20,000 nucleotides of DNA from an uncultured delta proteobacterium (GTDB lineage Bacteria > Desulfobacterota > Desulfobacteria > Desulfobacterales > SG8-13), in the NCBI GenBank assembly GCA_963848135.1, contig CAWKCK010000017.1:1391605-1411604 (forward strand), read 5' to 3'. The number at the start of each line of letters is the position of its first letter. The stretch's first letter is position 1. The position numbers were made by a program, and so were the translations under genes. Shown one piece after another: positions 1,787 through 18,990 of this stretch. Under the pieces are notes generated by a model. That model had not been told where the DNA came from, made no database searches, and saw nothing but the letters and a program-made list of their open reading frames with translations.

Positions 1787-2392
1787 ATGAAAAGGTTTCA
1801 TGGGATAATGGTCGTTTTACTGGTTTTATCGTTTCCTGCACTCGGCATCGCGGAGATCCCGGATGAAATCGCCGGATTCAAACTCGGCGGAAATATTGCG
1901 GAATTTCAGGATCGCATCAAAATGGACACGGCGTTGCCCCTGCGCTACTCCAACTACATCGAAGAAGTCGAAATTCAGCCTGTGGAGGGATTTAAAAACG
2001 GTCTCCTGTGGTTCGGAAAATGCACCGCCCCCGGGCGTATCGTCAGAATTCGCCTGAAATACGCCGATTCATCGAAAAAATTCTACAACGAACTTCTGAA
2101 GCGTTATCGAGGTCGATTCGGGAAGCCGACAGAATGGCGCGGCGACCCGTTTCACATCGTTATCTCCTGGAAATGGTCGTTTGTGGATGATCAAAATAAC
2201 CGCATCAGCATGATCCTGGATCACAATACCCGGGATGAAGAAGAATCCTACGGCAACACGGTCAAACTGACCATGTGGAACCTCATCGATGAGGAACGCG
2301 AGTGTTCTAAAAGAAAAAACGCAGACCGTCCTGCCCAGCCGCGAAAAAAGGCGTCAACACAGGCGGATTGGGAATTACTTCTGCCCCGTTGA
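1787..2392 (+). CDS. Secreted/periplasmic hypothetical protein
   Basis: Same frame as ORF 1718..2392. Start moved to ATG 1787, which has a GAGG RBS and a signal peptide MKRFHGIMVVLLVLSFPALGIA; the track's TTG start coincides with the -35 box. No family recognised. Confidence 0.8.
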   Translation: MKRFHGIMVVLLVLSFPALGIAEIPDEIAGFKLGGNIAEFQDRIKMDTALPLRYSNYIEEVEIQPVEGFKNGLLWFGKCTAPGRIVRIRLKYADSSKKFYNELLKRYRGRFGKPTEWRGDPFHIVISWKWSFVDDQNNRISMILDHNTRDEEESYGNTVKLTMWNLIDEERECSKRKNADRPAQPRKKASTQADWELLLPR

Positions 2393-2439
2393 TTCTACGG
2401 ACGTTACTATTTCGATTGAGATAATTCGTTGGGTATTAT

Positions 2440-2474
2440 AAAAACGGGGCTGCCCGGAATCCGGACAGCCCCGT
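2440..2474 (-). terminator. Rho-independent terminator (minus strand)
   Basis: Minus strand reads ACGGGGCTGTCCGG-ATT-CCGGGCAGCCCCGT then TTTTAT: a 14-bp stem with one G-U pair and a U tract only on the minus strand. Confidence 0.85.
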
Positions 2475-2773
2475 GATATGGAACTTTCTGCCTGCTGCTT
2501 CGGGGCCGCTAGCCACTCCGCATTCAGTGAAGCCATCGTCCGCTCAGATCAATCGAATAGGCTAATAGTCAAACAGGTAGAGAGCTCGCTCCGCTTTGCG
2601 CGACCCACAGACAGGATTTCCCGCATTTGTACTTCAGCTTCGGCTCTGTCGGACTTCAGAAATCAACTCCGGTCAATAGTATTGTCCGGTTGATTGCGGA
2701 AAACCAGGTTCCATATTATCAACGCCCTTTTCGCCAACCGCCCACAACGGTGTTGAAAACCACCAAGTGGCGC
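2440..2773 (-). ncRNA. Candidate structured non-coding RNA, family not recognised
   Basis: Nested helices: ATATGGAAC (2716-2708)/GTTCCATAT (2484-2476); GGTTTTCCGCA (2705-2695)/TGCGGGAAATC (2625-2615); hairpin at 2694-2662; GGGTCGC (2606-2600)/GCGGCCC (2509-2503). G-U pairs work on the minus strand only. Bounded by a sigma54-like promoter and a terminator, with no convincing ORF. Confidence 0.6.
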
Positions 2774-2783
2774 ATCAATCCAA

Positions 2784-2799
2784 AGCAAAATCCGGACCA
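2784..2799 (-). promoter_or_regulatory. sigma54 (-24/-12) promoter of the candidate ncRNA
   Basis: Minus strand TGGTCCG-GATT-TTGCT versus consensus TGGCACG-N4-TTGCW, with GG and GC correctly spaced. An AT-rich tract and an IHF-like site TTTCAG-ATTG-TTA (2829-2841) lie just upstream. Confidence 0.6.
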
Positions 2800-3137
2800 T
2801 CTTTTCGTATTATATTTATAATAAATATTTTCAGATTGTTATAACAATGGACGATTCGAAATTTGGATACCATCTGACGGGCAGCGGCAGGTAAAATGCC
2901 AAATTACGTCAACAGGCGGCGGGAAGACAAACGATATGAAGGAAAAAAAATACACTCAATCTCCTTGAATATATGTGGTTTTATCAAATTATGCCGCAAT
3001 TGAGTCAAATTTGAAGAAAAAATCCTACAGTCACGGATTGGCTAGGCCCTTTTTCAACATTCATCAAACATATGACCAACCCGATAATTATCGGTTCACA
3101 GGGCTGCAATGTCTAATGTACCTCAGGCCACAGAATT

Positions 3138-3245
3138 GTAAGCGTTTACAGGGTGCCGCAGATGCAAGGCGTCGGGCGCGCAGACGTACTTTTGTACTTC
3201 AAGTGCCCGACAACAAAGCAGATGCGGTGCCCTGTGAATGCTTAC
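3138..3245 (+). repeat. REP/MITE-like long hairpin element (GCAGATG...GCAGATG type)
   Basis: 23-bp terminal inverted repeat GTAAGCGTTTACAGGGTGCCGCA / TGCGGTGCCCTGTGAATGCTTAC whose 4 mismatches are all G-T on the plus strand. Inner stems GTCGGGCGC/GTGCCCGAC and GTAC-TTTT-GTAC. Confidence 0.75.
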
Positions 3246-3292
3246 CCCGATAATTATTATCAACATCGATAATCACCGACGATTAGGCCGAA

Positions 3293-5461
3293 TCAGGCGC
3301 CCATAACTTCACCGATGCTGCCGGACAACTGCATCAGGCTGAAAGGTTTTCTTAAAAAATTACCGGTTTCGGCTGTTAAGTCTTCTTTCAAATATTGAGC
3401 CGGAAGGTCTTTGCCGGTCATCATGAACTTCACTGCCGGATCGATCATCTTCATATTGGACAAGATCTTACTGCCGACCACCTGCGGTATATCCGCGTCG
3501 AGGATCACCAGACAAATGTCGTCCAATTTCAACTGGAATACTTCAAGTGCGCGCAAGCCGCTATCGGCCTTTAGCACACTGTAGCCCAGTTTTTTCAACA
3601 TCTGCTCCAACACATCGAGTACGGCGGAGTCATCACCGACGGTCAACACGGTTTCCCTCTTGGCGGGTTTGGCCCTTGTATACGCCTTATGCTCCACCAG
3701 CCTTGTTTTCATTGCAGGTAGAAATACACTGAAGTTCGAGCCTTTCCCTTTGGTACTTTGAACGGTGATAAACCCATTGTGGTTCTTTACGATACCGTAG
3801 GCCGAAGCAAGCCCTAAACCGGTTCCCTTCTGCGGGCCCATTTTTTTGGTTGTGAAAAACGGTTCGAACACGCGCTCCATTGTAGCTTTATCCATGCCAA
3901 TGCCGGTGTCAAGGATTGACAACTTGACGTATTTTCCTGGCTTATACTTCTGGTTTTTCAGAGAATTCTTGTCCAAGACGAGGTTTTGCGTCCGAATATG
4001 CAGCCCCCCCCCATCGGGCATGGCATGAAGGGCGTTAACGACGATGTTCATGATGATCTGTTTTATCTTGACAGGATCGACCTCGATTGGCCATAGGTTC
4101 TCTTCATATTTCGTATGGACATGGATATTCTGCCTTGTCTTTTCAAAAGTCTGGATCTGCTCCTGGGTAAGTTCGTTCAGGTCGGCCACCTCCATCCCCA
4201 CAGTTCCACCCTTGGCGAATCCGAGCAGTTTTCCTGTCAACTCATTGGCATTGTTGATATAATTCTCAATTGACAAGAGATGGTTGAAATAGGGGTGCAC
4301 GTATTCTGAGTTCGAAAGCATAATCGACACGTGGCCTTGAATTCCCATGAGAATGTTGTTGAAATCGTGGGCAATTCCACCAGCCAATGTTCCCACGGCC
4401 TCCATTTTCTGGGCCCGATAGAGGCGATATTCAAGCAGTCTTTTCTCCTGTTCGGCGCGCTTGAGTTCGCTGACGTCATGCACGACGACGGTGGCCGATT
4501 TGGGTTTACCGAATTCGTAATGTTTCCTGTCATTGATCACAGCCCAGAAGACTTTGCCCTCCTTGTTCCGAATTTTGAACTCGGCTGATTCTGACAGTTC
4601 CGTACCCCTATAAATCTTGGTCAATCGCTCGAAAAACAGGCTCCGGCTGTCCTCGGTAAAAATCTCGTAACTTTTCATGCCCAGCAATTCCTCACGGGTA
4701 TAACCGGTCAGATTGCAGATGAGATCATTGGCCCGGACGAACCTGCCGGTCCGTAGATCGACCTCGTAAATACCAGCCGGTGCATATTTAACCAACTGGC
4801 GGTAGCGCTCTTCACTTGTTCGCAGAGATTCCTCGGCCTGCTTTCGGATCGTAATGTCCTCGATCACACCGTCGATCCAGATGAGGCGCCCATTGTCATC
4901 CGATTTCACAGCGGCGGAGCACGACACCCAAAAAGACTTTCCACTGCGTTTTCGCATCATGAGCTCCCGCCCGCTGATGTGCCCCTGGTTAATAATGTCG
5001 GCGATAAAGTCCTTCATTTCCAACGGATTCAAATAGAGGTCAGGTATTCTGGTGTTCATGAAATCGTCGACGGAGCGGTATCCAAAAATTCTGGCCGCAG
5101 CCGGATTGGCGCGGACGATACGGCCAGCGGGATCAATGGTACATCGAAAAACACCCGCTGTTAAATTTTCGATGAATTCGCGGTGGTCATCTTCGCTCTT
5201 CAACAGGGCGTCGCGGGTTTTTTTGAGCTTGTTAATCGTCGTTTGTGCATGGGCGCCGAAGATCAGCAGAATGCACAACACGATGACCCGGGTGTAAATT
5301 TCATAAAGGTCCGGGCCGAAAATCTCGGCCACGATGTTGTATCTGTTGGAAAAAAATATATTGAGTATGGAGTCGAGAACCCAATATATAATGGCAATGG
5401 GAATCCCGGCCAAAATCATCGAATCCATACCTCTCGCGTTTTTTTGCGCGTCTTTCTTCAT
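3293..5461 (-). CDS. Hybrid sensor histidine kinase/response regulator (2 TM - PAS - PAS - HisKA - HATPase - REC)
   Basis: H-box GGIAHDFNNIL, N-box NIVVNALHAM, G1 DTGIGMD, F-box FEPFFTTK, G2 GTGLGL. Two PAS/PAC units ending in DIT and DVS. C-terminal receiver with LVILD and KPF. Confidence 0.95.
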   Translation of the reverse strand: MKKDAQKNARGMDSMILAGIPIAIIYWVLDSILNIFFSNRYNIVAEIFGPDLYEIYTRVIVLCILLIFGAHAQTTINKLKKTRDALLKSEDDHREFIENLTAGVFRCTIDPAGRIVRANPAAARIFGYRSVDDFMNTRIPDLYLNPLEMKDFIADIINQGHISGRELMMRKRSGKSFWVSCSAAVKSDDNGRLIWIDGVIEDITIRKQAEESLRTSEERYRQLVKYAPAGIYEVDLRTGRFVRANDLICNLTGYTREELLGMKSYEIFTEDSRSLFFERLTKIYRGTELSESAEFKIRNKEGKVFWAVINDRKHYEFGKPKSATVVVHDVSELKRAEQEKRLLEYRLYRAQKMEAVGTLAGGIAHDFNNILMGIQGHVSIMLSNSEYVHPYFNHLLSIENYINNANELTGKLLGFAKGGTVGMEVADLNELTQEQIQTFEKTRQNIHVHTKYEENLWPIEVDPVKIKQIIMNIVVNALHAMPDGGGLHIRTQNLVLDKNSLKNQKYKPGKYVKLSILDTGIGMDKATMERVFEPFFTTKKMGPQKGTGLGLASAYGIVKNHNGFITVQSTKGKGSNFSVFLPAMKTRLVEHKAYTRAKPAKRETVLTVGDDSAVLDVLEQMLKKLGYSVLKADSGLRALEVFQLKLDDICLVILDADIPQVVGSKILSNMKMIDPAVKFMMTGKDLPAQYLKEDLTAETGNFLRKPFSLMQLSGSIGEVMGA

Positions 5462-5580: not shown

Positions 5581-5596
5581 TGCAATAACCATTCCA
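5581..5596 (-). promoter_or_regulatory. sigma54-type promoter upstream of the histidine kinase
   Basis: Minus strand TGGAATG-GTTA-TTGCA, about 120 nt upstream of the start codon. Confidence 0.55.
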
Positions 5597-5662: not shown

Positions 5663-6853
5663 CTAGTTCGTCATCAGGTGGGCAACGGCCTTCTCGAGAC
5701 CGTCGATGGACAATTCGAACATGGGAAAGATCTGCTCGATGACTTTAACTGTTTGGGTGTAGGACCACATGTCTTCAGTCATGGGATTAAGCCAAACCGA
5801 ATGAGGAAATGTCTTGGTCAGAAATTTGAGGCACTCGATACTCGGTGTTCCACTGCGCTCCTCAATGTGGATCGAGCCATCGGCGACCATTAACTCATAG
5901 GGTGCCATGCTGGCATCACCGACAACGAAAAGCCTGGTCTGGGGGTCTTCAGCGGCAAATTCCTCGATCCGTTTCGGTTTGCGGAACCTGGCCGAGTCTT
6001 CCCAAAGAGTGCTGTAGACCGTGTTGTGAAAGAAATAGGTCTTCAGATCCTTGAACTGCGAGCGGGCATAATCGAATATCGTCTGCACAACGGAAATATA
6101 GGGATCCATGGAATACCCGCCGTTGTCGATGGCCAAAATGATTTTGAGCCGATCCTTCAGACTGCGTTCAAAGACTATTTCAATCTCCCCGCCGTTCTTC
6201 ATGGTCTGGTAGAGCGTCGCATCGATATCGAGCATGTCCTTGGGGCCCACCGGAACCAGATTGCGCAACCGCTTCAGGGCCTCGCCCACCATCGGTCGCG
6301 TCAGCGGCCCACTGAGGGAATAATCCCTGTAACGCCGATCCATAGCGACCTTAACGGCCGACTTGTTACGGGATACACCGCCGACGCGCATTCCCCCCGG
6401 GTGGACACCCGAATGTCCCACGGGTGAGGTCCCGCCGGTTCCGATCCATCGGCTGCCACCGTGATGTTCGCCGGTCTGATCTTTGAGACGCGCTTTGAAA
6501 TATTCGATCAATTCATCCGGACTCAAGCGGCTCAGTTCCGATTCGTCGATACCCAGGGCCTCGGCCAGCGCGCGGGGATCCTTGAGCCAGTGTTCCAGCA
6601 TGTTTCTGGCGATATCATCCAACTCGACGCCGGTGTAATCCGGCAGTTCAGCTCCCTGAAAGTGATGGGCAAACGCCTGGTCGTAGAGGTCGAAGTATCT
6701 CTCGCTTTTAACGAGGATTGTACGGGACGCCGTGTAAAAATCATTTAGGGAGTTCACCAGATCGGATTGCAAAGCCCGGTGAAGGGTTAGAAAGGACGTC
6801 GGGCTAACAGGAATCCCGATATCTTTGAGTGTATAGAAAAAATCAACAAACAT
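5663..6853 (-). CDS. VWA domain-containing protein (CoxE-like), partner of the MoxR ATPase
   Basis: MIDAS-like IDNGGYSM, YFFHN, VGDASMAPYEL, WLNP and the Gly-rich WIGTGGTSPVGHSG motif. Lies directly downstream of a MoxR ATPase. Confidence 0.88.
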   Translation of the reverse strand: MFVDFFYTLKDIGIPVSPTSFLTLHRALQSDLVNSLNDFYTASRTILVKSERYFDLYDQAFAHHFQGAELPDYTGVELDDIARNMLEHWLKDPRALAEALGIDESELSRLSPDELIEYFKARLKDQTGEHHGGSRWIGTGGTSPVGHSGVHPGGMRVGGVSRNKSAVKVAMDRRYRDYSLSGPLTRPMVGEALKRLRNLVPVGPKDMLDIDATLYQTMKNGGEIEIVFERSLKDRLKIILAIDNGGYSMDPYISVVQTIFDYARSQFKDLKTYFFHNTVYSTLWEDSARFRKPKRIEEFAAEDPQTRLFVVGDASMAPYELMVADGSIHIEERSGTPSIECLKFLTKTFPHSVWLNPMTEDMWSYTQTVKVIEQIFPMFELSIDGLEKAVAHLMTN

Positions 6854-6879
6854 AGGGACAATCCTGGCTTAGGAAAATA

Positions 6880-7734
6880 TCAGTACAACCGCCTGCGGCG
6901 AATGTACTCGGTTGTTTTCCGGAGGTCCTGGCTTTTTTTGAACAGCACGCCAAGGTAAGGAATCTCGCCTTTAGCCAGCTTTTTGGGCCTGAAATCCGGA
7001 TCGGCATTGAGGGCCCGGATCCAATTGATGAGCTCACGGGTTGCCGGTTTCTTTTCCACCCCGTCCAACTCGCGCAGATGGTAAAAGGCCGTTACCGCAT
7101 GTTCCATCAGCTCCGATTCGAGATCGGGGAAATGAACGCCGATAATGTTGCGCATCATCTTTGGCTCCGGAAAGGCGATATGGTGGAAATTACAGCGCCC
7201 CAGGAACGGGTCCGATAGGTCTTTCTTGGCATTTGAGGTGATGATGATCACCGGTCTGTGCCTGGTTTTGACGGTTTTGTCGATTTCGATAATGTCAAAT
7301 TCCATCTGATCCAGAACATCGAGCATGTCATCCTGAAAATCGGTTTCGGCTTTATCGATTTCATCGATCAGCAATACGGTTCGGATATCAGCCGTAAAAG
7401 CCTGCCCTATTTTTCCCATGCGGATGTACTCTTCGATGTTGCTCACATCCCGACTGGAGTCGCCGAAACGGCTGTCGTTAAGCCGGGTGAGTGTATCGTA
7501 TTGATAGAGCGCTTCAATCAGTTTCATGCTCGATTTGACGTTCAACACCACCAGAGGCATTTTAAGATTCTCGGCGATGGCATGGGCAAGCATTGTTTTC
7601 CCGGTACCCGGCTCCCCTTTAAGAAGAAGCGGCATTTCAAGGGCCATAGAAATGTTGACGATACTGGCCAACTCTTCATCGAGAACATACCGGGTGGCAC
7701 CGGTAAAGCGTTTGGAATTGTTTTCTGTAGTCAT
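6880..7734 (-). CDS. MoxR-family AAA+ ATPase (CoxD-like)
   Basis: Walker A GEPGTGKT, Walker B LLIDEIDKA, sensor-1 IITSN, and the KKPATRELINW motif. Confidence 0.92.
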   Translation of the reverse strand: MTTENNSKRFTGATRYVLDEELASIVNISMALEMPLLLKGEPGTGKTMLAHAIAENLKMPLVVLNVKSSMKLIEALYQYDTLTRLNDSRFGDSSRDVSNIEEYIRMGKIGQAFTADIRTVLLIDEIDKAETDFQDDMLDVLDQMEFDIIEIDKTVKTRHRPVIIITSNAKKDLSDPFLGRCNFHHIAFPEPKMMRNIIGVHFPDLESELMEHAVTAFYHLRELDGVEKKPATRELINWIRALNADPDFRPKKLAKGEIPYLGVLFKKSQDLRKTTEYIRRRRLY

Positions 7735-7749
7735 TCAATCATACCTTCA

Positions 7750-7827
7750 ATTCAATGACCTCCGGCAAGGTCGGAGGAAGGGTTTGTGAACCACTCCAGC
7801 AAAGCTGGGAGGTCACCGATGGTTATT
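7750..7827. mobile_element. Degenerate non-autonomous IS200/IS605-type remnant (fused end hairpins), copy 1
   Basis: ATTCAATGACCTCCGGCAAGGTCGGAGG...TGTGAACC...CCAGCAAAGCTGG...ACCGATGGTTATT. The first 19 nt are identical to 9132-9150. The hairpins resemble IS200-family subterminal palindromes as I remember them; this was not searched. Confidence 0.6.
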
Positions 7828-8911
7828 GGGGTATAGATTCAAAACCGAGCGCACTGCGCAGTCGATCGGAGACTTCCCGTGTCAGCTGCAACACTCTCTC
7901 TGCCAGGGACGGTGACAGCGTGCCGGTCCCGCAACTGGGTGTGATAAGGGATTGAGCGGCAATTTGACGGCGGCTGAATCCCAGCTCTTCGATGGCGCGA
8001 ACCTTTTCATACCACTGGGCGGCCAACGATTCGGCAGTTTCCCTGGCCACATCGTCTCCATCACCAGTGGGCACAATGCCCCAGGCCAGAATTTTGCCCG
8101 AGTCGATAAATTTCCGGATCAGTTCGGGATAAAGTATAAAACGGTCAAAGTAAGTATACGCATCAAAATTGATGATGTCTGCCGGAGATTCAAGGGCCAG
8201 CGACCAGTCGGTATTGGCACAGATGTGGACCCCTACAAGCCCACCGGCGGTGTGAACCGCCGCCATGATTTCTTCCAGGCAGGTGGTGATATCGTCCCGA
8301 GACACACTCAAGAATTCCGAAGTGCCGAACCCGGCCAGGGCCGGTTCATCGCAAAAAATAATTACCGAACGATCGGGAGCGGACATCTGGCGCACTTGCC
8401 ATGCGGCTTTCAGGGCTAAAAGCTTGACGGCAGCATCCCGCATCTGCAGATTATAGAAAATGGCTTGCCGATTGTCATCTTTCAATCCGGTGCAAAAAGT
8501 GAACGGACCGGTTACCTGTCCTTTGACTGCGATGGGGTTCGGCTGTTCCGGCAGGTTTTCCATTAATACTTCAAATCCGGGGGCCGTATCGGTGTTGAGA
8601 GTGAAACGGGATCGGTTGAGGTCCAGTTGCCCCTCCATCACGGCCATGTATTCTTCGTAGAATTCCAGGATCTGCTGATCGTAATCCGCCGCTGCGGTAT
8701 CGACAAACGTGCGGCCGTCAACGATACGGACACCAGGCAGGCCTGGTGTAAACTGGGGAATCATGCCCTCACGAGCATGGACCGGTAGCTGAACCCACAG
8801 AGGAATGTCCGGGGTATATTTGAAAACGAGCCGGCTGGCCATGGCATGATCTTCCAGCGGCAGACTGCCGATAAGCAGGGGCCGGCAATCAGCTTCAAAC
8901 TGAAGCGCCAT
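7823..8911 (-). CDS. Core (short, folate-independent, MesB-like) methionine synthase; MetE catalytic-domain superfamily
   Basis: 362 aa. N-terminal IGSLP, KGQVTGPFT and DEP motifs. Zn ligands HIC (GVHICANTDW), Asp in INFDAY and Cys in ITPSCG. Lacks the N-terminal folate-binding half of MetE. Confidence 0.8.
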   Translation of the reverse strand: MALQFEADCRPLLIGSLPLEDHAMASRLVFKYTPDIPLWVQLPVHAREGMIPQFTPGLPGVRIVDGRTFVDTAAADYDQQILEFYEEYMAVMEGQLDLNRSRFTLNTDTAPGFEVLMENLPEQPNPIAVKGQVTGPFTFCTGLKDDNRQAIFYNLQMRDAAVKLLALKAAWQVRQMSAPDRSVIIFCDEPALAGFGTSEFLSVSRDDITTCLEEIMAAVHTAGGLVGVHICANTDWSLALESPADIINFDAYTYFDRFILYPELIRKFIDSGKILAWGIVPTGDGDDVARETAESLAAQWYEKVRAIEELGFSRRQIAAQSLITPSCGTGTLSPSLAERVLQLTREVSDRLRSALGFESIPQ

Positions 8912-17143: not shown

Positions 17144-18990
17144 ATGCCAGAACTAATGAGGAACAATGAACTTTTCCGGATTTTTATGGAGGAAAGCATC
17201 GAACCCATTTGGTGCTTTGAACTCGACGAGCCCATTTCTCTCGATTTGCCGGAAGACGAACAATTTAACTTATTCTTTAGTCAGGATACCTCATAGAGAA
17301 CAACAGGGCATATGCGCAGATTGTTGGGTACGAACGGAGGGAGGACATGCTGGGTCTGCGCGCTCGTGAAATCATGCCACCTTCCGTTCCCGAGAATGCG
17401 GACGCCATTAAGCAGGTCATCAGGTCAGGCTATAATTTGCGTGATTTCGTGAGCGTTGAAATTTACAAAGATAAGAAATATATTGTTCTCAACAATGTTA
17501 GGGGCGTCATCGAAGATGGAAAGCTCCTTAGAGTATGGGGGACGGCCCGAGATATCACCACTCAGATAGCCGCTGAAGATGACCTTCGCGAAGCAGAGCA
17601 GCGCTATCGGACCGTAGCCGACTTTACTTATGACTGGGAAACCTGGGAAAACATAGACGGTTCCTACAATTATGTATCCCCCTCTTTTGAAAGGATTACG
17701 GGATATCGAGTGCAACAATTAATAGACCGTCCTGGTATGCTAAATGAGATCATTTTGCCCGATCATTTAACCCAGTGGCAGGAACACCAACAAGCTGCGT
17801 ATGCCCGGCATGAAACGGACGAGATTCAGTTCCCTATCCGCGCAAAGAACGGCCAAATCCGATGGATCGAGCACATTTGCCAACCTGTCTATGGTGATAA
17901 GGGAGAATATTTAGGCATCAGAGCCAGCAATCGAGACATCACCGCCAGAAAACTATCTGAAAGAAGGCTCCGCAACGCTTATACGAAGATTGAGGAGTTG
18001 AAAAACCGGTTGGAAGCCGAAAGTGCCTACCTTCAAGACGAAATTAAGCTGGAACACAACTTTGAAAACATCATCGGTCAGAGCGATTCAATCAAATATG
18101 TACTCCACAGAGTCGAACAGGTCGCCCCCACGGATTCTACCGTATTATTTATGGGGGAAACGGGTACGGGCAAGGAGCTATTAGCCCGGGCTCTACACAA
18201 GCTCAGCCCTCGCGGTAGAAGGGCATTGGTGAAGGTGAACTGTGCGGCCCTGCCCCGGGAATTGATTGAAAGCGAACTTTTCGGCCGGGAAAAAGGGGCT
18301 TTTACCAGCGCCACAACTACCCAGCCGGGGCGCTTCGAACTGGCCAAGGGATCCACGATTTTTTTGGACGAAATCGGCGAAATGCCACTCGAGCTTCAGG
18401 CCAAACTGCTGCACGTTATTGAAAGCGGTGAATTTGAAAGACTGGGAAGCCCCCGCCCACTTCACTCCGATGCCCGAATCATCGCCGCCACAAACCGCGT
18501 TCTGGAAGAAGAAGTGCGGAAAGGCCGTTTCCGGGAAGATTTGTGGTATCGGCTCAAGGTTTTTCCCATTACGGTGCCTCCTTTGCGGGAGCAACCGGAA
18601 GACATCCAGTTGCTGGTCGCTTGGTTTATGGATCGACTCGGCGGAAAAATGGGAAAACGCGCCACCGAAATCACTAAACGGTCCATGAAAATGTTGCAGA
18701 GCTACCACTGGCCAGGCAATGTACGAGAATTGAAACATGTGGTTGAAGCTGCAATGATTACCTCAAAGGGGAAGAGGCTGAATTTTGAACTTCCCCAAAC
18801 GGAGGACACTTTGGGTAGTGATTTCAAATCTTTTGAGGAAATGGAGCATGATTATATTCTGCAGGTGCTCAAAGCCAGGAATTGGAAAATCGGGGGTGAT
18901 AACAGTGCTGCTTCAACTTTAGGGATGCATGTCAACACGCTTCGTGGCCGTATGAAAAAACTCGGTATTAAGAGGCCGAAACCACAATAA
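17144..18990 (+). CDS. sigma54-dependent enhancer-binding protein (PAS-PAS-AAA+-HTH); first PAS interrupted by a -1 frameshift
   Basis: Walker A GETGTGKE, ESELFGREKGAFTSA, FLDEIGE, WPGNVREL and a C-terminal HTH lie in ORF 17347..18990. The N-terminus MPELMRNNELFRIFMEESIEPIWCFELDEPISLDLPEDEQF from ATG 17144 joins GYLIENNRAYAQIVGY...MLG if one G is added at 17284-17285. A GGAGG upstream of ATG 17347 could allow a shortened product. Confidence 0.88.

Follow-up and report, generated by a model that had tools for sequence, protein, structure and literature searches.

What occupies the minus strand between a hybrid kinase gene and a convergent gene for a 200-aa protein is the question raised by a 20,000-nucleotide (nt) stretch of DNA, hereafter the window, from an uncultured delta proteobacterium of the Desulfobacterales (assembly GCA_963848135.1, contig CAWKCK010000017.1, positions 1,391,605 to 1,411,604). 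An earlier note, made from the letters of this window, had seen there a complete minus-strand transcription unit without a protein gene, and we find the same: the segment has its own terminator, no conserved reading frame and no Rfam match. We propose that window positions 2440-2775 of the minus strand form a stand-alone gene for a structured non-coding RNA of an undescribed family, which in this genome is probably fired by sigma54 and which would act in trans through a protein, and we give this reading as a whole a probability of roughly 0.6. The element is probably a new, genus-restricted regulatory RNA, and it would probably work by binding a protein.

A stand-alone unit outside known RNA families

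The unit to be explained is the following.

2440..2775, minus strand: predicted primary transcript, whole; about 335 nt if transcription starts about 12 nt past the -12 GC of the promoter, near G2773; homologues cover the entire stretch

A search of the 6.03-Mb genome found this stretch in a single copy. The claim that it belongs to no recognised family was borne out by Rfam 15 (4227 models), which was run at gathering threshold on the whole window and at E up to 10 on 2200-3300: no family reaches its gathering score anywhere in the window, and the permissive scan gave only hairpin-level noise, at 11-23 bits against thresholds of 35-167. A riboswitch, which the note had already thought unlikely, is made so by what follows the RNA, namely the terminator and then a convergent plus-strand gene, with the next minus-strand gene starting at 1298, more than 1.1 kb past the terminator as had been stated.

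Homologues in two clades of one genus

The note had pointed to Desulfobacterota as the place to look for homologues, and the searches described here returned 11 distinct sequences, all from two clades of one Desulfobacterales genus, and found none outside it. Clade A comprises the window, G007, L051 and G003, and clade B the other seven. The RNA is present in 7 of the 16 genomes (species) of the genus and in none of four genomes from the three remaining genera of the family. A BLAST search of 41 related genomes recovered G007 at 80% identity over nearly the whole length and G003 at 72% over the 3' two thirds; in G013, G011 and G005 it reached only the 3' end, and alignment then revealed full, more diverged copies. 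When the 20 genomes available for the family were all searched with a clade-B query, G009 too proved to have a copy, a partial one where a contig ends. Between the clades column identity is about 63-72%, and two blocks, of 21 and 17 nt, are invariant.

Wider searches returned to the same genus. An exact-pattern scan of one genome per species (185,579) gave 13 loci, five of which were the same five species of the genus; the other eight were judged to be chance matches, their surrounding motifs and terminator being missing. The corresponding scan of metagenomes gave 37 loci, six of them real and two of these six identical over the RNA. When the family profile was run with nhmmer on 30 loci beside the 200-aa gene, 28 of them from the order's other families, only the source genome and G013 matched, and a covariance model (R1) over 151 genomes of the order likewise found full-length matches only in these two. 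Five other genomes scored with R1, at 28.8 bits or less, and were rejected: in the three alignments examined, at the G016 and G139 loci, the score came mostly from a terminator-like hairpin, with the model largely deleted or poorly matched.

In four congeners (G001, G002, G008 and G015) the gap between the kinase and the 200-aa gene is only about 200-260 nt and the RNA is absent from it. The RNA is hence either a lineage-specific addition at this site or has been lost in those four species.

A conserved two-arm fold

The minimum free energy (MFE) of the window's RNA is -129.8 kcal/mol (z -3.48), a value that none of 100 dinucleotide shuffles equals, and the plus strand folds less well (z -2.78). 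The core of about 240 nt consists of a closing helix, P1, and two arms, with variable 5' hairpins before it and the terminator after it. Its parts, in transcript order, are these.

2717..2775, minus strand: variable 5' hairpin domain, starting with a conserved UGC(A/G)C; absent in G003, and made of other hairpins in clade B
2706..2716, minus strand: P1 closing helix, 5' strand AUAUGGAACCU; alignment columns 61-71, pairing with 292-302
2615..2705, minus strand: arm 1, closed by P2; in the MFE fold it holds a long hairpin and the AGC-CGAA-GCU hairpin
2488..2614, minus strand: arm 2, closed by P3b and P3a; columns 164-177 with 270-290
2614-2607 with 2495-2488, minus strand: P3b, 8 bp, CUGUCUGU with GCAGGCAG; conserved register in the alignment
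2606-2601 with 2508-2503, minus strand: P3a, GGGUCG with CGGCCC; family form GGGUCG/CG(G/A)CCC
2529..2533, minus strand: GCUUC inside arm 2, invariant in 11/11 and complementary to the invariant GAAGC of the bulge (2501-2497)
2502-2496, minus strand: 7-nt bulge CGAAGCA; family form (C/U)GAAGC(A/G)
2476..2486, minus strand: P1, 3' strand AAGUUCCAUAU, partner of 2706..2716
2439..2474, minus strand: intrinsic terminator with a 14-bp stem (11 G-C pairs, 2474-2444), a 3-nt loop and a U tract

Run on the 11 sequences, RNAalifold keeps four helices: P1, P3b (8 bp), P3a (6 bp) and the terminator. Their 37 pairs form in 98.0% of 407 cells, as opposed to 35.6-44.5% in a control in which the 3' partners were slid by 1-3 columns, and none of 500 shuffles reaches either the covariation score or the percentage paired. 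The covariation that the earlier note had wanted examined is there, in that six pairs (17 cells) change on both sides, with the reservation that two-clade sampling leaves few independent events. Strand is marked in two ways: a T tract lies 3' of the terminator hairpin on the minus strand only, and the non-Watson-Crick pairs are G-U on that strand, as had been said of the window, filling 26 of the 407 helix cells, with pairing at 98.0% here versus 92.6% on the complement.

Taken helix by helix, most of the structure first described from the window persists. The 9-bp closing helix (2716-2708/2484-2476) is in the MFE fold, and the family's P1 pairs in 96.7% of cells with two pairs changing on both sides. 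Also in the MFE fold is the 11-bp helix (2705-2695/2625-2615) that closes arm 1. When the sequences are taken one at a time, P2 is found in all 11 (dG -8.4 to -15.3 kcal/mol; 0-8 of 200 shuffles as good), and it is missing from the consensus only because MAFFT shifted it; its sequence is clade-specific, UUUUCCGCA/UGCGGGAAA in clade A versus UCACGCA/UGCGUGA in clade B. In arm 2 the columns of P3b and P3a pair in 96.6% and 98.5% of cells, and column pair 165/289 is A-U in six sequences and U-A in four. The helix read in the window as GGGTCGC/GCGGCCC is found in the fold and kept in the family as GGGUCG/CGGCCC. The register CUG-U-CUG/CAG-CAG with a bulged U had to be given up, since it cannot form in clade B and the alignment favours a continuous 8-bp helix. 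The inner hairpins GGAG-CGAG-CUCU and CACU...AGUG do occur in the window's own fold and are not kept in the family; because the arm interiors differ between the clades, we take them as features of the window and not of the family. The terminator, claimed as a 14-bp helix with a U tract, has its 14 pairs at 2474-2444 and the T tract after them, and the 12 pairs modelled across the family show 100% pairing, with three of them changing on both sides.

The invariant GCUUC and GAAGC could pair with each other, and such pairing would cross P3a, so that a pseudoknot or an alternative pairing is possible. Four of the seven sequences of clade B have an MFE fold in which GCUUCAG pairs with CUGAAGC in place of P3a. 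Because neither 5-mer varies, the data neither support nor oppose this pairing.

Presence in RNA libraries

Part of 2300-3300 is listed in 21 public runs, six of which are RNA libraries, and four of these, from three studies, were examined. All four are metatranscriptomes and hold contigs on the RNA core, within 2480-2739. One contig covers 2493-2705 as a whole 213-nt record with a single difference; others cover 2480-2704 (the whole of a 225-nt record) and 2532-2739 (the whole of a 208-nt record), so that entire records of 208-225 nt sit within the RNA, and further contigs cover 2490-2704, 2540-2689 and 2545-2671. Three contigs from two studies end at 2704/2705, a weak hint of a transcript end. 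Some of the contigs are diverged and reveal at least two further variants; two of the differences turn G-U pairs of the model into Watson-Crick pairs, with C in place of U2603, which faces G2506, and A in place of G2620, which faces U2700. The sequence of this RNA hence stands in sediment RNA libraries, which does not by itself prove a discrete transcript. Within 2000-3400 there is no RNA-library contig at 2329-2469, 2752-3127 and 3269-3400, and this is not evidence that the flanks are silent.

A probable sigma54 promoter in clade A

The consensus bound by sigma54 has GG at -24 and GC at -12, 10 nt apart, in the context TGG...TTGC. Upstream of the RNA the following features may bear on its transcription.

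2785..2799, minus strand: sigma54-type -24/-12 box TGGTCCGGATTTTGC (GG-N10-GC), invariant in clade A; rpoN is in the genome
2911-2897 and 2889-2875, minus strand: two tandem imperfect inverted repeats TGACG-N5-CGTCA, candidate enhancer sites, 22 bp centre to centre

The box that the earlier note had read as TGGTCCG-GATT-TTGCT is thus present and fits GG-N10-GC with TTGC. It is invariant in all four clade-A sequences while its AT-rich flanks vary, and from its position transcription would start at the conserved UGC(A/G)C with which the alignment begins. The rpoN gene is a 482-aa frame with a PF04552 match of 215 bits. An alignment of the four clade-A upstream regions shows the inverted repeats, 75-125 nt upstream, to be kept in this clade; G003 has both in perfect form, and in the window and G007 they are half-degenerate. 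Their layout is the usual one for enhancer sites, and from this we would regard them as candidate sites for an activator. The IHF-like site that had been placed upstream did not survive inspection: with one mismatch allowed, none of the window's 17 consensus matches falls in 2800-2900, where the tract is just AT-rich.

Some further observations concern the same sequences. Over the genome there are 102 strict sigma54-type boxes, with about 46 expected by our own arithmetic. A second GG-N10-GC box, TGGCATTTTACCTGC (2887-2901, minus strand), overlaps the putative enhancer repeats and is kept in G007 and L051, not in G003. The clade-B upstream regions (L064, L065, L005, L050, L052, L059 and L060) have conserved blocks of their own, among them a palindrome, TGACAATTATTGTCA, some 175 nt ahead of the 5' hairpin of the RNA, the sequence AAGGCGTGTTTTG-GACCTGTTTT and a TGGTCCGG-like box. 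Two clade-B candidates for a sigma54 box were rejected: a near-match TTGCAC-N5-TTGCA at the 5' hairpin, because it has no GG, and the TGGTCCGG-like box, which lies about 110 nt upstream of this near-match, because it has no -12 GC. The clade-B primary transcript may be longer. Nor could a regulon be drawn from the TGACG-N5-CGTCA repeat, whose sites occur in about the number expected by chance.

Recurrent motifs and a possible mechanism

Two sets of short motifs in the window's RNA had been put forward as protein-binding sites, and they fare differently. The recurrent CUGA(A/G) is enriched in every one of the seven sequences tested: CUGA occurs four times in the window's RNA versus 1.5 expected, and four to six times per sequence over the seven, versus 0.8-2.3 expected (p 0.000 to 0.067). 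It recurs near alignment columns 70, 110, 130-140, 221-236, 252 and 275 in both clades, and in 8 of 11 sequences the invariant bulge reads CUGAAG. These motifs could equally be structural, YGAA closing the AGC/GCU hairpin as a tetraloop. The GGA triplets, on the other hand, lose their claim, since the window's RNA has eight versus 7.6 expected (p 0.48) and no CsrA gene was found; GGA is at chance in the seven of the 11 sequences that were tested (p 0.14-0.997). Hfq and CsrA are the usual partners of base-pairing and GGA-sponge RNAs, respectively, and in this genome, of 98.65% completeness, no match to either Hfq (PF17209) or CsrA (PF02599) was found. The invariant blocks lie in P1, P3, the junction and the bulge, and not in an open seed.

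We would therefore sketch the following pathway. In clade A, transcription would probably start near 2773 from the sigma54 promoter at 2799-2785, fired, again probably, by an enhancer-binding activator at the inverted repeats of 2911-2875, and the RNA would be the probable output of a two-component or activator signalling path, as are the Pxr or Qrr RNAs; the sister clade would use another promoter. We infer action in trans on a protein, which the RNA would bind, sequester or scaffold, and not classical Hfq-assisted base pairing, because its invariant bases lie in the junction and the bulge, CUGA(A/G) recurs, GGA is at chance, and Hfq and CsrA were not found. In the fullest form of this reading the RNA would be controlled by a signal and would serve an unnamed RNA-binding protein as sponge or scaffold, with four to six CUGA(A/G) sites on a pseudoknotted two-arm junction. 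So specific a proposal is distinctly unlikely to hold in every part; if true, it would describe a regulatory layer like that of CsrB or CrcZ in which motif and protein partner are both new, for a lineage in which neither Hfq nor CsrA was found.

Weighing the evidence

A number of points weigh against reading 2440-2775 as a sigma54-controlled, protein-binding RNA. Neither the strand nor the ends nor the level of a transcript can be read from metatranscriptome contigs, and DNA may be present in RNA libraries. Because the 11 sequences are divided between two clades, most two-sided changes go back to one split and there are few independent covariation events; a change on both sides is seen in only 5 of the 89 pairs predicted within clade B, and the arm interiors do not align between the clades. 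A core model built with structure from clade B alone gives the four held-out clade-A sequences 48.8, 48.7, 41.8 and 31.9 bits, as against 35.5, 35.2, 31.9 and 26.8 bits from a clade-B model of sequence only, a gain of 5-13 bits that is modest support and indicative only, because the two models were weighted differently. The RNA is also dispensable for the genus, because it is missing at the same locus in four congeners, and we know of no RNA-binding protein that recognises CUGA(A/G).

The promoter meets objections of its own. The box alone proves little, because its pattern is no rarer than chance in the window (TGG-N8-TTGC occurs six times versus 3.27 expected, and 21 of 200 shuffles reach six); what weight it has comes from its position and conservation. 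None of the seven clade-B sequences has a GG-N9-TGC box at the corresponding place, and six of the seven have none anywhere in the 340-420 nt upstream; because the box is missing there, sigma54 control is not a trait of the family. The inverted-repeat motif is not enriched genome-wide, with eight perfect sites versus about six expected by our own arithmetic. No gene for an enhancer-binding protein is adjacent, the nearest (17347-18990) being 14.5 kb away and encoding PAS, AAA+ and HTH domains and no receiver domain. The sigma54 drive of the earlier note has partial support, from clade A, with the box invariant in 4/4 and the inverted repeats upstream, and none from clade B (0/7); for the window's own copy, we consider such control to have somewhat better than even odds. 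Taken as a whole, the case for a real RNA gene is good; the distribution is confined to one genus, with few independent covariation events.

Genomic neighbourhood

In both clades the gene order is hybrid kinase, RNA, convergent 200-aa gene and PD40 beta-propeller gene. The features around the RNA in the window are these.

1787-2392, plus strand: secreted protein of about 200 aa (signal peptide MKRFHGIMVVLLVLSFPALG...), convergent; no Pfam or NCBIfam family
3125-3246: dispersed repeat of about 120 nt, an imperfect palindrome; at least 40 genome copies at 86-98% identity, in both orientations
3293-5461: hybrid PAS-PAS-kinase-receiver protein, directly upstream of the RNA
5663-8911, minus strand: three genes on the kinase's strand, upstream of it; conserved in both G007 and G003

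The adjacent kinase had been credited with a sigma54-type promoter, and such a box, TGGAATGGTTATTGC, does lie at 5582-5596 on the minus strand, about 120 nt upstream of the hybrid histidine kinase gene. It is kept in 4/4 genomes compared, including G007 and G003 (TGGAATGGAATTTGC) and clade-B G005 (GGGAATGGATATTGC, in which the first T is G). Because the box is kept in relatives, the kinase may itself be sigma54-dependent. The stop codon of the convergent 200-aa gene lies about 50 nt from the terminator of the RNA. Its product belongs to a widespread uncharacterised family, members of which, at 40-59% identity, were found in 65 of the 201 genomes sampled across the order, and in the order's other families the RNA was not found beside it.

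The dispersed repeat lies between the kinase stop codon and the RNA promoter in this genome only, and many metatranscriptome contigs cover it at high depth, diverging on both sides. A 92-aa frame on the plus strand (2975-3253) was rejected as a gene, having no family match and overlapping this repeat. Of the three genes at 5663-8911, the 362-aa product has no family, the 284-aa product is an AAA+ ATPase and the 396-aa product has only a weak SAV_2336 N-terminal-like match; together they may be an uncharacterised ATPase-linked signalling or conflict module.

Alternative explanations

A trans-acting small RNA of the Qrr or Pxr type, an exposed segment of which alters the translation or decay of mRNAs by base pairing, would account for a good part of what we see. 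It would have its own promoter and Rho-independent terminator, it would be lineage-restricted as many small RNAs are, and it would stand beside a two-component gene, as do pxr and Dv_sRNA2 in the excerpts of the respective reports (PMC5568312; PMC3333781). We consider it unlikely, if still a serious candidate: no Hfq gene was found, the RNA, at about 335 nt with a 240-nt junction core, is far above the size of typical seed-type small RNAs, and its invariant bases sit in helices, in the junction and in a bulge that has an internal complement, and not in an open seed. A crude test that allowed huge loops gave duplex energies no better than those of shuffles for the 5' regions of six neighbouring genes.

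The invariant junction and bulge, the possible GCUUC/GAAGC pseudoknot and the retention of helices while their sequences drift are also what one would expect of an RNA whose tertiary fold binds a small molecule or catalyses a reaction, that is, an orphan riboswitch-like or ribozyme-like RNA expressed alone. Such an RNA would control no downstream gene here, given the terminator and then the convergent gene, it would resemble no riboswitch or ribozyme family in Rfam, and its very narrow distribution would be unusual for a metabolite sensor, all of which makes the idea quite improbable.

Two further explanations seem to us very improbable. Under the first, the locus is a recent lineage-specific transcribed insertion without function, for instance a mobile-element relic with a stable fold. 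Presence in just 7/16 genomes of the genus, absence from the same intergenic space in G001, G002, G008 and G015 and a putative miniature transposon 350 nt upstream in this genome would fit, but the RNA is single-copy, its two clades keep the helices by two-sided changes along with the invariant blocks of 21 and 17 nt, its terminator is kept in 11/11, and its sequence is in RNA libraries of three studies. Under the second, which deserves very little credit either, it is a cis element, either left by processing from a 3'-extended kinase mRNA or controlling the convergent 200-aa gene, as a roadblock or as an antisense partner, through the terminator region that they share. Kinase and RNA are, however, 300-500 nt apart, with a T-rich terminator-like tract in the gap, there is no overlap between the RNA and the convergent gene, and four congeners and the order's other families keep the 200-aa gene without the RNA; on its side are the place between kinase and convergent gene, fixed in both clades, and the mere 50 nt or so between terminator and stop codon.

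There remains a small-protein gene. The AUG inside P1 (2714) is the only start codon common to 11/11 homologues, among which no reading frame is conserved; AUGGA is invariant and each sequence has an open frame there, of 13 (window), 26, 28, 46 or 50 codons. That these frames, with products such as MEPGFPQSTGQYY, are the conserved product, as the earlier note had allowed for the 13-aa frame, is barely credible, since their lengths range over 13-50 codons, their sequences are unrelated between clades, clade-B G005 and L052 differ by two replacement changes versus one silent change (counted by eye), and the AUG is buried in P1 with no Shine-Dalgarno motif upstream.

Significance and relation to known systems

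If the preferred reading of a protein-binding, signal-controlled RNA is right, the locus would be of interest in several ways. The Desulfobacterales are a major group of sulfate reducers in marine and freshwater sediments, and their regulatory RNAs are almost unstudied because most members are known from metagenomes only. The RNA described here offers a testable example, with predicted ends, a fold that is conserved, a constant position next to a hybrid kinase and, probably, a sigma54 promoter with enhancer sites. A protein bound through its CUGA(A/G) repeats would form with it a new RNA-protein regulatory pair where Hfq and CsrA were not found. It would be an accessory regulator and not a general principle, since seven species of a single genus have it and close relatives lack it.

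A full-text literature search, which did not extend to the supplementary tables of PMC3333781, returned no such RNA in the Desulfobacterales. The sulfate reducers do provide a precedent in Dv_sRNA2 of Desulfovibrio vulgaris, which excerpts of that study describe as a target of the adjacent response regulator DVU0679, in target maps that also mark predicted sigma54 promoters (PMC3333781). Dv_sRNA2 comes from a different phylum-level lineage, and the likeness is one of description in those excerpts. Closer in several respects is Pxr of Myxococcus xanthus and its relatives, a stand-alone RNA gene beside nla19, with a two-component gene upstream; in the excerpted account it resembles the present RNA in that it folds into several stems, ends in a Rho-independent terminator, is restricted to one lineage and is predicted to have a sigma54 promoter and an enhancer site (PMC5568312). 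As that account has it, however, Pxr is 108 nt long with three stem-loops and is thought to target mRNA, whereas here some 335 nt enclose a closed two-arm junction core; and the neighbour of Pxr is a sigma54-dependent response regulator, whereas this RNA adjoins a hybrid kinase and has no matching Rfam model.

The Qrr RNAs of Vibrio depend on LuxO and sigma54, are about 100 nt long and Hfq-dependent, and carry a conserved open seed. The likeness, if our promoter call is right, would be in the circuit, in which hybrid kinases act on an enhancer-binding regulator and this on a sigma54 RNA promoter beside signalling genes; the difference is that the present RNA is three times as long, its conserved bases are structural and no Hfq was found. 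The GlmY and GlmZ promoters use upstream activator sites and IHF, of which 2800-2900 here holds no consensus. These RNAs of the Enterobacteriaceae are sigma54-dependent, and GlmY is described, in excerpts of the reports, as binding RapZ without pairing (PMC3045617; PMC4152352; PMC7073468). They differ from this RNA in fold and host. CsrB and RsmZ, with GGA motifs, and CrcZ, which has A-rich motifs, depends on RpoN and CbrB and is about 400 nt long, are protein-sponge RNAs. To these the present RNA is akin as a long RNA that repeats a short motif (CUGA(A/G), four to six times), with CrcZ also having a sigma54 promoter, and from them it departs in that the motif is another, GGA is not enriched, and CsrA and Hfq were not found. 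Its size, its fold and the lack of an Rfam match set the RNA apart from all these groups; in its working it would come closest to Pxr, Qrr, GlmY and CrcZ, regulatory RNAs that depend on sigma54.

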